A program made the position numbers and the translations under genes. From Escherichia coli (GTDB lineage: Bacteria; Pseudomonadota; Gammaproteobacteria; Enterobacterales; Enterobacteriaceae), in the NCBI RefSeq assembly GCF_041248615.1, contig NZ_CP158426.1: a stretch of DNA of 64,000 nucleotides; one strand, given 5' to 3'. Shown one piece after another: positions 47,879-51,657 of this stretch. Position 1 is the first letter of the stretch, and each line of letters begins with the position of its first letter. The notes beneath the pieces were generated by a model. The model was given only the letters and a program-made list of their open reading frames with translations, was not told where the DNA came from and made no database searches.

Positions 47879-50011
47879 TCAATCTTTAAGACTAATTGTG
47901 ATTGCATCTGGAAATCCAATTTGGCTATAGCACATAGTTTCGGTTATGAATAATTTTCTATCGATAAAATCAAGTACATCTTTTTTCGTGAGCCCCGTTA
48001 ACATCGTCAATTTGTTAATTACATAATCATACCAATCATGGTGAAGCATGTTTATATACATGTTAATATCAACTGCATCTTTCTTCCATGAATTATTCGG
48101 TATCAAATCTTCAGATAAAAATCCTCTTATTAAATCGCTTGCATAGGACATCCTAAGAAAAACAGAAAGAAAAAGCCTTACATTAACATGTGTAAAATTT
48201 GTAGATAGCGTCGAAGGAAACTCGTAAAACCGGTAGATCAACCGACTTACAAAAACAGCAGAGTCTATCGCATTTACAGGCAGTAATGTTCCGATGACAC
48301 TTAATGCACCACTTATAACGAAGCCATTAGCAACAGAGGCATGAGAACCACTTAGGGCAGATGTTAAACATGCACTCAGAATTACGATAGGAGGAATTCT
48401 TGCTATTTTTCTCAAACTCCAAGTGTCCACTTTATCCTCACCTATTATTAACCATCCATGACTCCCATTGCCATCATGGTTTCCATGACAATCCATAACA
48501 AGAATATGACCTTGATATTGATTTAGAGCATCAATAAACTCAGCTTTCGATCTAACATCAATAATCTCGCAATCAAGATCTGGCATCTGTTTTTTAAATA
48601 TCTCAATTGCGTTCTCTAATATGAACTTTAAGTGATCATCAGGCTCAAAAGAACGTATAACTAAAACCTTTCTCAACTCAGATGCTTTTACTAAAACGCG
48701 CGGAAAAGCAGAGGCGCTCTGTAGAAGAACGTTACCAGGCGTAGCATTTATTCTTGATATCTCATGACTGAACATTATAGGTATGTTATTAAACCTAATC
48801 CAATCCAATGGTACATCACAAACAAAGGACAAATCGCTATAGTTTTTACTTATATATGTTCTCAACTTGCAACCAAGGGCTCTTCGAATAACAGTATTGA
48901 ATGCTTTAGATTTAGTGATGAATGCTTCACTATTTATCCCAGAAGAAGTTGCAAGATCTTCAAGATTTTTCAAATAATTGGAGTAATGATTTATTGCATT
49001 TGGCAATCTTATTGCTGGGATTTTTTTATTTATGCTAAATAAAGTAATCGCAGCTGTTGTTAATCGCATTTCAGCGCGTCTTAGTGAGGTGAGGTAACGG
49101 AAAGCAGGACTTTTAAAAAGTTCTTTTCTATCTGAATTTATATCAAGTCTAATTCCAGAATAGCCTGGATTCCTCAACACTCCATCAATAAGGAATTTTT
49201 TCTCAATTGTGGATAAATTTTCCGTTATTAACTCATAAAAGTCATTATTTTTATCATATAAAAAAGAGTGCATACCCGGAGCAAAAAGTAAGACTTCCGT
49301 TGGAAGTGGTATATCTAATTCCTTTAAACATTCGGTGTATGCATCAACGCTATGAAGTATTATTTCTATAAACTCTCTTTTGCTACTACCATCTTTAATT
49401 CTTTTTGGTGGAGATAGCATATAGCCAAGTGATTCAATTAACAACTCATTGGGTAGTGTTGAATTGTTAAGCGTCGATCTCCAAGGTGATTTATTAAATA
49501 AAGCCCCTCTTCGCTTCAACTTCGTTGATATTTTCTTTTCACTGTGATTTTTTCTTATTTTATCCTCAATGAATTTCAACCGAGAGAAGAGCACCTTATC
49601 AAATGAGTATATACTATTAATCTTATTAAGTGGTAGATCAGCGCGTTTAGAATTGCAACAAATTATAGGTGGTATAGCAAAATGTTTTTTTAAAGCACAA
49701 ACATACGAAAAATCTTCTTTAGCACAAAAAATTAAGCAAAATGGCGTTTGATAAATATTTGGTATTTTTTCAAGATTTTCTTTAGATATTAAAAAAATAG
49801 GATTTAGCCCGCTTAGAGTAGGCTGAAAGTTATCATTTTCACTGACAAAAATCTCACTAATTTCTTTTGGTGTTTTGGCCAATAAAAAAAGAATGTTGGA
49901 TATCTCTGGGTTGAGGAGGCCAGTATCGAAACCTTGGATTATGGTTTGTTCCCCAGTAGTAGGCATGATTACAACTTTAAGTATCGCCCCGTGTTCCTGT
50001 AACAGTTCCAT
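47879..50011 (-). CDS. CHAT-domain (caspase-like cysteine protease) protein with an uncharacterised N-terminal region
   Basis: C-terminal GHILVMDCHGNHDG ... PPIVILSACLTSALSGSHASVANGFVISGALSVIG has the His-Gly / Ser-Ala-Cys catalytic signature of CHAT peptidases; AGGA SD before MELLQ; strongly AT-rich. Confidence 0.6.
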   Translation of the reverse strand: MELLQEHGAILKVVIMPTTGEQTIIQGFDTGLLNPEISNILFLLAKTPKEISEIFVSENDNFQPTLSGLNPIFLISKENLEKIPNIYQTPFCLIFCAKEDFSYVCALKKHFAIPPIICCNSKRADLPLNKINSIYSFDKVLFSRLKFIEDKIRKNHSEKKISTKLKRRGALFNKSPWRSTLNNSTLPNELLIESLGYMLSPPKRIKDGSSKREFIEIILHSVDAYTECLKELDIPLPTEVLLFAPGMHSFLYDKNNDFYELITENLSTIEKKFLIDGVLRNPGYSGIRLDINSDRKELFKSPAFRYLTSLRRAEMRLTTAAITLFSINKKIPAIRLPNAINHYSNYLKNLEDLATSSGINSEAFITKSKAFNTVIRRALGCKLRTYISKNYSDLSFVCDVPLDWIRFNNIPIMFSHEISRINATPGNVLLQSASAFPRVLVKASELRKVLVIRSFEPDDHLKFILENAIEIFKKQMPDLDCEIIDVRSKAEFIDALNQYQGHILVMDCHGNHDGNGSHGWLIIGEDKVDTWSLRKIARIPPIVILSACLTSALSGSHASVANGFVISGALSVIGTLLPVNAIDSAVFVSRLIYRFYEFPSTLSTNFTHVNVRLFLSVFLRMSYASDLIRGFLSEDLIPNNSWKKDAVDINMYINMLHHDWYDYVINKLTMLTGLTKKDVLDFIDRKLFITETMCYSQIGFPDAITISLKD

Positions 50012-50144
50012 CAAAAATCCTAATAAACAAATAAGAATGTTATAATCAAAAACTGCAAGGATTAGCAAGCAATTCTTACAGTTTTAAGAAGGGGATTATA
50101 CCGCAATATGCATAATTGCGTTCTGCCTATGCAAAATGTCAGTT

Positions 50145-51362
50145 CTAGTCTGAACAAGTACAAGTAACTATCGATTCAACTCTCTCCCACCATGCCTGGT
50201 AAGCTTTACGCTGTTCATCTAAATAATCGCTCTTGTCATAAACCTGCCATACCCCTGGCAGTTTATGACCGAGCATTATTTCTGCAATATGAGGTGCAGT
50301 AAGATCAGAAAAGTTTGTTCGTGCTGTTCGTCTCAAATCATGAAGAGACCAATGAGGGAATTGATACCCCAAACGCCGCCATGCGTACTGCATTAAATTG
50401 TAAGGCAGCGACTGCAATGATGTCCGGCCAACGGGTTCCCTGCTTCCTTCCTTAGTAAAAAGCATATCGGAACCATTGTTCATAGAGATAACGTACTTTA
50501 TAAGCTCTTCAACCGGTTCAATAATGGGGCGCTTTAGCGGTTCGCCTGTTATATCCCCTGTCTTATGTCGTTCTGGCGGTACAGTCCATACCTTATTAAT
50601 GAAATCAAAATCATTCACCCTAGCGGTAATTAGCTCTGAACTACGGCAGCCAAAATGCAGCAATAGTTTAATGAAGGCCCGGTATTTAGGAACCATTCGA
50701 GAACCATCGATCGCAGCATAAAGGATTTTAATTTCATCATGTGTCAGAAACCGTTTCTTCTGACCTTTACGGATATCCATATCTTTACCCGTGATATCCG
50801 ACAGCGGGCGAGTTTCAATGAGCTTTCTCTTATACGCCCAGACATGGGCCTGCTTTGCGTTAATTAGCAATCGGTCTGCTATTGCTGGAGTCTTAGTGCT
50901 AAGAGGCTCCAGGACTTCTAACCAATCATGCAATGTAGCTGCATCGTGAGGGATATTCCCGATTTTAGAGAACAGGTGCAGCTCAAACGAGCGGAGTATC
51001 TGTTCAGAACCTTTTTTATTTTTTACACAATATGCTTCATACCAGGCACGGATCACAGACTCTACCGTCATGGCTTCAGTAGCTTTTCGTTTTTCAGCCT
51101 GCTTGACTAATCGTGGATTGCGGTTTGACTCGAGTTCACCACGGAGACGGATAACTTCTTCTCTGGCCTCTTTTAATCCAGTTGCCGGGTAAGTTCCGAT
51201 ATCAAGGCGCTCACCTTTCCCTGCCCATTGATAACGATATTGGAACACTACGCGACCTTTCGGTGATACTCTGACAGACAGACCATCACGATCGGATTTA
51301 ACCAAAACCTTATCACGTTCCTTTCCAACGACTGAACGCAACCACGCATCAGACAGCGCCAT
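50145..51362 (-). CDS. tyrosine recombinase / phage integrase (P4-type)
   Basis: 405 aa; N-terminal DGLSVRVSPKGRVVFQYRY; C-terminal HDLRRTART ... LGH ... Y catalytic pattern. Confidence 0.85.
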   Translation of the reverse strand: MALSDAWLRSVVGKERDKVLVKSDRDGLSVRVSPKGRVVFQYRYQWAGKGERLDIGTYPATGLKEAREEVIRLRGELESNRNPRLVKQAEKRKATEAMTVESVIRAWYEAYCVKNKKGSEQILRSFELHLFSKIGNIPHDAATLHDWLEVLEPLSTKTPAIADRLLINAKQAHVWAYKRKLIETRPLSDITGKDMDIRKGQKKRFLTHDEIKILYAAIDGSRMVPKYRAFIKLLLHFGCRSSELITARVNDFDFINKVWTVPPERHKTGDITGEPLKRPIIEPVEELIKYVISMNNGSDMLFTKEGSREPVGRTSLQSLPYNLMQYAWRRLGYQFPHWSLHDLRRTARTNFSDLTAPHIAEIMLGHKLPGVWQVYDKSDYLDEQRKAYQAWWERVESIVTCTCSD

Positions 51363-51591
51363 TACTCACCTTGTACAAATAAAAAAACACCTCTGCTGTT
51401 TTGTACATTATGTACAAGCACATGTACAGATTTTTGATGAAAGCAACCTGATCGATTTAAAGTTACATGAAAGAATTTTCAATTAAAGAAACCACATAAC
51501 ATCATGTTATTAAATGAGTTATATGATTAGCACTCAATTAACTGAAAGGACTTTGAAAGAGTAAAAGAGCTTTAATTTGGGCTTAATTATT

Positions 51592-51657
51592 GGGGTGAGA
51601 AATAATGGCAAAAGTGCGGCGCTTCGCCACCTCTTGCAAATAAGGAGACAACGTCAT
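51592..51657 (-). pseudogene. prfC: prfC (peptide chain release factor 3) first 22 codons, cut off by the prophage
   Basis: Minus strand encodes [22 protein letters not shown], then diverges into AT-rich prophage DNA just before the expected P-loop DAGKT. Confidence 0.7.

Follow-up and report, generated by a model that had tools for sequence, protein, structure and literature searches.

What does an AT-rich gene for a predicted protease do beside the integrase of an Escherichia coli prophage, and does it belong to a defence system that has already been described? The gene lies in a 64,000-nucleotide stretch of contig NZ_CP158426.1 (RefSeq assembly GCF_041248615.1), referred to here as the window. 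An initial annotation, made from the sequence, had read it as a single-gene defence or abortive-infection effector built around a CHAT protease and had found that it did not fit the CHAT-containing systems known to that reader. The evidence assembled here makes it very likely that this is an allele of the sole Borvo gene, bovA, carried as int-xis cargo of a prfC-integrating lambdoid prophage and acting through a CHAT-protease mechanism that is triggered by phage polymerase.

The open reading frame at the locus spans 47879-50068 on the minus strand and would encode 729 aa if started at a TTG; from the ATG at 50011 the product has 710 aa and the N-terminus MELLQEHG. This ATG is the start chosen by both RefSeq, which labels the product (WP_192459786.1) a 'CHAT domain-containing protein', and Millman et al. 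All 28 aligned homologues share the corresponding Met1, and an AGGA Shine-Dalgarno sequence is positioned 6 nt 5' of the codon. The gene had been credited with its own Shine-Dalgarno sequence and a perfect TATAAT about 60 bp upstream; both elements are present, but the distance between TATAAT and ATG is 83 nt. The TATAAT is not called by a consensus promoter scan because it lacks a good -35 element, and the same scan returned fewer promoter-like sites than were found in shuffled sequence. The pronounced AT-richness was borne out, with a GC content of 34.1% for bovA against 45.0% for the adjacent integrase and 50.1% for the whole window, such that the gene sits in surroundings of 45-50% GC. The reading frame is full length and retains every residue that is invariant among the BovA homologues. 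Coordinates of the gene, its domains and its neighbours are collected in Table 1.

Table 1. Features of the bovA gene, of the prophage that carries it and of alternative cargo genes from other E. coli genomes. Positions refer to the window unless a locus (L004, L013 or L015) is named.
Feature	Position	Strand	Description and evidence
bovA (Borvo) CDS	47879..50011	-	710 aa, intact; ORF list, PADLOC, RefSeq WP_192459786.1
BovA N-terminal region, residues 1-435	48707..50011	-	family-specific; presumed sensor/regulatory
CHAT (caspase-like) protease domain, ~residues 436-640	48092..48706	-	
His509 codon	48485-48487	-	
Cys548 codon	48368-48370	-	
bovA upstream region	50012..50144	-	TATAAT 50100-50095; AGGA Shine-Dalgarno 50021-50018; alternative TTG 50068
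Tyrosine integrase	50145..51362	-	PHROG 1, E 7.9e-75; RefSeq; directly upstream of bovA, same strand
Excisionase (xis)	46254..46436	+	PHROG 1553, E 1.2e-31; 3' end replaced by IS1414
IS1414 (IS256 family)	46413..47727	+	1315 bp; 8-bp target duplication GGGCATCA; not part of Borvo
prfC 5' fragment (PrfC N-terminus)	51589..51657	-	translation; marks prophage-chromosome junction
Second IS1414	7459-8667	-	identical transposase WP_072847535.1; in J-like tail protein region of same prophage
IS1B transposase gene	43045-43742	+	between yfdP and yfdQ
296-aa BRCT-domain protein gene	40598-41488	-	directly after cI-like XRE repressor
PADLOC-unmatched cargo, 331 aa	L004:4627-5622	+	WP_000653747.1, APEC O1
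PADLOC-unmatched cargo, 413 aa	L013:3066-4307	-	WP_015674827.1, CE10
PADLOC-unmatched cargo, 286 aa	L015:2402-3262	-	WP_249926566.1, 2015C-3121

The identity of the gene is carried by its match to a defined family and by its near identity to a verified gene. A scan against PADLOC-DB, one of the checks proposed for the locus, returned BovA (PDLC03831) with an E-value of 2.6e-241 and 801 bits, aligning residues 4-709 with positions 3-715 of the 720-position profile, and BovA was the single PADLOC match of the protein. In the supplementary tables of Millman et al. (10.1101/2022.05.11.491447), which hold the Borvo entry of that preprint (its main text uses neither 'Borvo' nor 'CHAT'), system SG178 from E. 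coli 403116 is named 'Borvo' and listed as verified, with a clone of 2569 nt that contains one gene, for a 710-aa 'CHAT protease', BovA. Comparison with the verified allele covered the first 399 nt of the clone and the first 399 aa of the protein, across which 397 nt (differences at 50035 and 49842) and 398 aa are identical. The sole amino acid change, N57S, occurs in a column that is not conserved among the 28 aligned homologues, and the upstream and 5' untranslated region is identical in 132 of 133 nt, the exception being position 50035. As the SG178 clone starts at the equivalent of 50145, the last base of the stop codon of the same integrase, both sequences derive from the same locus. Residues 400-710 were compared with the representative of a 508-member cluster and differ only by V503I and R643K, both at columns that are not invariant.

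The window bovA is a near-identical copy of the gene that defined Borvo, already known and not new, and the novelty implied by the initial annotation therefore does not stand: the system has a name and an experimental record. The window allele is set apart from SG178 by N57S, by the one base in the 5' UTR and by an IS1414 inserted 151 nt past the bovA stop codon, within the 3' flank that the verified clone contained. The features of Borvo membership, namely the profile match, the identity to the verified gene, a CHAT domain with a Cys-His dyad and single-gene status, were all found, and nothing was found against a Borvo identity. In PHROGs the protein matches a family of unknown function (phrog_34827). 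The window gene is a type example of a named and verified defence system that standard tools (PADLOC, DefenseFinder) flag, and reasoning from the sequence alone, based on AT-rich cargo beside an integrase, a CHAT dyad and no partner gene, had reached the correct function.

The anti-phage activity of the window allele itself is putative and follows from its place in the verified clade. The label BovA alone is no guarantee of activity, since a 746-aa 'BovA' from Bacillus sp. 37MA (SG179) was tested and gave no defence (10.1101/2022.05.11.491447). By eye and unaligned, the N-terminal sequence of SG179 has no evident resemblance to that of the E. coli protein, and the name 'Borvo' may cover CHAT proteins with unrelated N-terminal regions.

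The behaviour of Borvo during infection is documented by Stokar-Avihail et al. (10.1101/2022.08.27.505566). Borvo from E. coli 403116 was placed in MG1655 under its native promoter and the single gene protects, with cultures that collapse or stop growing when the multiplicity of infection (MOI) is high and survive when it is low, the signature of abortive infection. Phages T5, SECphi4 and SECphi18 escape through missense mutations that fall within the polymerase's proofreading cleft, and expression of the wild-type SECphi4 DNA polymerase alone is toxic only in Borvo-carrying cells, a toxicity that the mutant polymerase relieves. The authors of that study note that direct and indirect sensing of the polymerase are not distinguished by their data (10.1101/2022.08.27.505566). 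The trigger polymerase of SECphi18 is the anti-DarTG factor mga47 (10.1101/2025.06.06.658234). Elsewhere Borvo has been grouped with Csx29 as a CHAT protease system (PMC10952713) and described in 2024 as 'poorly understood' (PMC11348598), and activity has been reported for a two-gene 'Borvo-like' system in Streptococcus thermophilus (PMC12322248). The proposal that the gene is a single-gene defence or abortive-infection effector thus corresponds to what is published for an allele identical at 398 of 399 residues. Its stand-alone status agrees with a verified clone that holds bovA alone.

The protein is composed of a C-terminal CHAT domain preceded by a region particular to the family. Pfam CHAT (PF12770) matches residues 488-592 with an E-value of 8.9e-6, and the fold starts at approximately residue 436, ahead of the start of the Pfam match. 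The motifs that had been proposed to carry the catalytic His and Cys are located at residues 508-512 (CHGNH) and 544-548 (ILSAC). Searches of 5.8 billion proteins recovered BovA homologues in 34 clusters, nearly all 700-720 aa in length and ranging from 99% to 31% identity. Among the 28 homologues in the alignment, which span 31-85% identity, D507-C508-H509-G510-x-H512 and S546-A547-C548 are invariant, as are many N-terminal positions. An AlphaFold2 model built with the homologue alignment is confident (pLDDT 83.7, pTM 0.84) and has a protease fold, and the closest structural relatives include the active proteases Csx29, separase, SAVED-CHAT and the gingipains. A plain sequence search against PDB chains gave nothing at E <= 1, and a profile search of PDB sequences gave only a marginal match to Csx29 around the catalytic Cys (E 0.011). 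In that match ILSAC is aligned with VILGAC, which supports Cys548 as the nucleophile and His509-Gly510 as the caspase-type His-Gly.

The N-terminal region had been described as unassignable to any family, and this description stands for Pfam, where no family was matched in any of 20 homologues, but with the CHAT fold starting near residue 436 its length is approximately 435 aa and not 470. The 435 residues are as well conserved as the CHAT domain, reach a pLDDT of 79 when modelled alone, and yielded neither a convincing structural relative nor any nuclease, NADase or pore-like domain.

The relationship of BovA to other systems built on CHAT or related proteases, and to multidomain defence proteins, was considered case by case. 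BovA is not Csx29 (TPR-CHAT), the protease of the type III-E CRISPR Craspase, with which it shares approximately 13% sequence identity. The only NCBIfam match of BovA, to NF041237 (Csx29), reaches 14.7 bits where the cut-off is 300, Pfam finds only CHAT and no TPR, and no Cas7-11/gRAMP, Csx30, Csx31 or cas genes are nearby. Nor is it a SAVED-CHAT protease of type III CRISPR or CBASS-like signalling, with no SAVED-like match in the N-terminal part and no cyclase or CRISPR genes in the vicinity. Separase has a helical N-terminal superdomain and securin-type regulation, whereas BovA has neither and is 11-13% identical to it. A gasdermin-protease pair would require an adjacent gasdermin, but the flanks hold the integrase, the IS1414 transposase and xis, and Avs/STAND proteins are set aside by the absence of any NTPase family in Pfam and by a PADLOC result that returns BovA only. 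The initial view that the gene fits none of the gasdermin pairs, Craspase or Avs was therefore sound as far as these systems are concerned, and failed only in that the gene belongs to the named and verified Borvo.

The distribution of bovA links it to a particular place in a particular type of prophage. The gene was identified in 31 of 5426 complete E. coli genomes, in every case chromosomal and with at least 99% identity, and the three loci inspected have the same order, int-bovA-(xis)-DUF551-yfdR-yfdQ-yfdP. It is also present at 99.7-99.8% identity in the sequenced temperate phages cdtI and Ayreon; the cdtI record lists it as orf33, a hypothetical protein, with the integrase on one side and an intact excisionase of 64 aa on the other. 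Borvo is thereby placed in its natural setting, as swappable cargo in inducible prfC-integrating lambdoid phages such as cdtI. In the window, the neighbours are the integrase and IS1414/xis. More distant BovA homologues, at 68%, 55% and 34% identity, occur in conjugative or integrative elements with unrelated neighbours, and no conserved partner gene was found at these three loci.

The prophage integrase is far more widespread than bovA, occurring at 95% identity or more in 699 of the 5426 genomes, and homology between these loci stops at its stop codon. The comparison with prfC prophages that lack bovA, which had been suggested as a check, was made with eight sampled genomes and revealed that the same slot holds other cargo, known defences among it: Dsr1, AIPR/AbiU (E 3.7e-111), a dCTP deaminase, a dGTPase (E 8.7e-105), an AriA/OLD-like ATPase (E 7.5e-57) and three proteins (331, 413 and 286 aa) for which PADLOC returned no match (E-values from PADLOC). 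The variety of single-gene defences in one position identifies the int-xis slot as a swap site for such genes, and this provides an independent fit with a defence role for bovA. By the same token, the slot supplies the three uncharacterised genes as candidate defence genes. The arrangement is reminiscent of the defence hotspots of P2/P4 prophages and satellites, as the concept is outlined in Rousset et al. 2022, in that a fixed slot in a conserved mobile element is occupied by unrelated single-gene defences that replace one another, and it differs in the site, here the int-xis interval of a prfC-integrating lambdoid phage.

From these elements a course of events can be proposed for Borvo. The family-specific N-terminal 435 aa would hold the C-terminal CHAT protease (His509/Cys548) inactive and would sense either the phage polymerase itself or something that its exonuclease or replication activity produces. 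Once released, the protease would cleave at least one essential protein of the cell or the phage and so halt growth before progeny form. That the N-terminal region acts as a sensor and that the Cys/His dyad is needed are both inferred. Two bolder readings go further. In one, the N-terminal 435 aa would be an undescribed sensor module that frees the CHAT protease by direct recognition of the proofreading cleft in family-A phage DNA polymerases that are unrelated to one another. In the other, the int-xis slot would be an undescribed defence hotspot with three new defence genes (331, 413 and 286 aa). These readings are tentative and rather doubtful.

Three other explanations start from the same locus. 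The toxicity of Borvo might not be due to CHAT proteolysis at all, for instance if the effector were the N-terminal region, with the CHAT domain reduced to a degenerate scaffold or sensor. The equal conservation of the two parts of the protein would suit such an arrangement, as would the outcome of the literature search, in which no paper on Borvo structure, substrate or catalytic-dyad mutants was found, and none on mechanism beyond the trigger study. It is nonetheless improbable, because the dyad is invariant: His509, Gly510 and Cys548 are preserved with their surroundings down to 31% identity, which would be unexpected in a dead protease. The kinship of the fold with active proteases and the lack of any nuclease, NADase or pore-like domain in the N-terminal part point in the same direction. 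Slightly less probable again is the idea that the Borvo allele in the window is silent or inactive, a remnant in a decaying prophage. The prophage does carry three insertion sequences (an IS1414 copy in each of xis and the J-like tail gene, and an IS1B between yfdP and yfdQ), one of the IS1414 copies lies just downstream of bovA, and the allele departs from the verified clone at 50035 in the 5' UTR and by N57S in the protein. Against decay of bovA itself, however, no insertion sequence touches the gene or its upstream region, the latter is identical to that of the verified clone at all but one of 133 positions, the reading frame is full length with each invariant residue kept, and the substituted position 57 is not a conserved one.

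That bovA is carried by a toxin-converting phage, cdtI, with the cdt genes a few kilobases away and with no annotation there beyond hypothetical, could also be taken to mean that the gene is a prophage moron whose role is not defence but, for example, addiction, virulence or the killing of the host at induction. This explanation is very hard to reconcile with an almost identical allele having been shown experimentally to be anti-phage outside any prophage, or with alternative cargos of the slot that are known defence genes, and its probability is judged to be close to nil. A Borvo allele with a polymerase-triggered CHAT protease is the reading retained here.

The prophage itself departs in some respects from an intact element. 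On the chromosomal side, the prfC fragment is followed by yjjG, rimI and holD, and together these flanks show that the description of a prfC-integrated prophage was correct. The integrase stop codon, whose last base is 50145, directly adjoins the upstream region of bovA, which extends to 50144. The placement of bovA between an integrase and an excisionase-like gene was likewise right in that both flank it, but on the xis side an IS1414 intervenes and truncates xis. RefSeq annotates this insertion as an 'IS256-like element IS1414 family transposase', and alignment with the uninterrupted locus of strain A17, read together with the junctions, reveals that the last 11 codons of xis have been exchanged for 7 codons derived from the element. 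The insertion is strain-specific: strains A17 and RM12761 and phage cdtI all lack it at this locus. It may keep the prophage from excising. A truncated DUF3672 fragment is located beside the second IS1414, and the two suggest that the prophage is defective. No exact 14-mer is common to the prfC junction and positions 1-46000 of the window, and the other end of the prophage probably lies outside the window or has a shorter att core.

Several smaller observations concern the rest of the element. Strains A17 and RM12761 have no IS1B at the corresponding position between yfdP and yfdQ. The BRCT-domain gene, with a GC content of 36-40%, matches the PADLOC candidate family PDC-S48 weakly and in part (E 2.4e-7); it is a possible second moron or candidate defence gene. 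The small xis gene is left unannotated by RefSeq/PGAP in the E. coli chromosomes examined, and the 64-aa excisionase is annotated in phage cdtI. At the far end of the window (positions 1-2863), Mu-like genes (gp16 family and a Mor activator) and a truncated YadA-like adhesin gene occur beside lambdoid tail-fibre genes.
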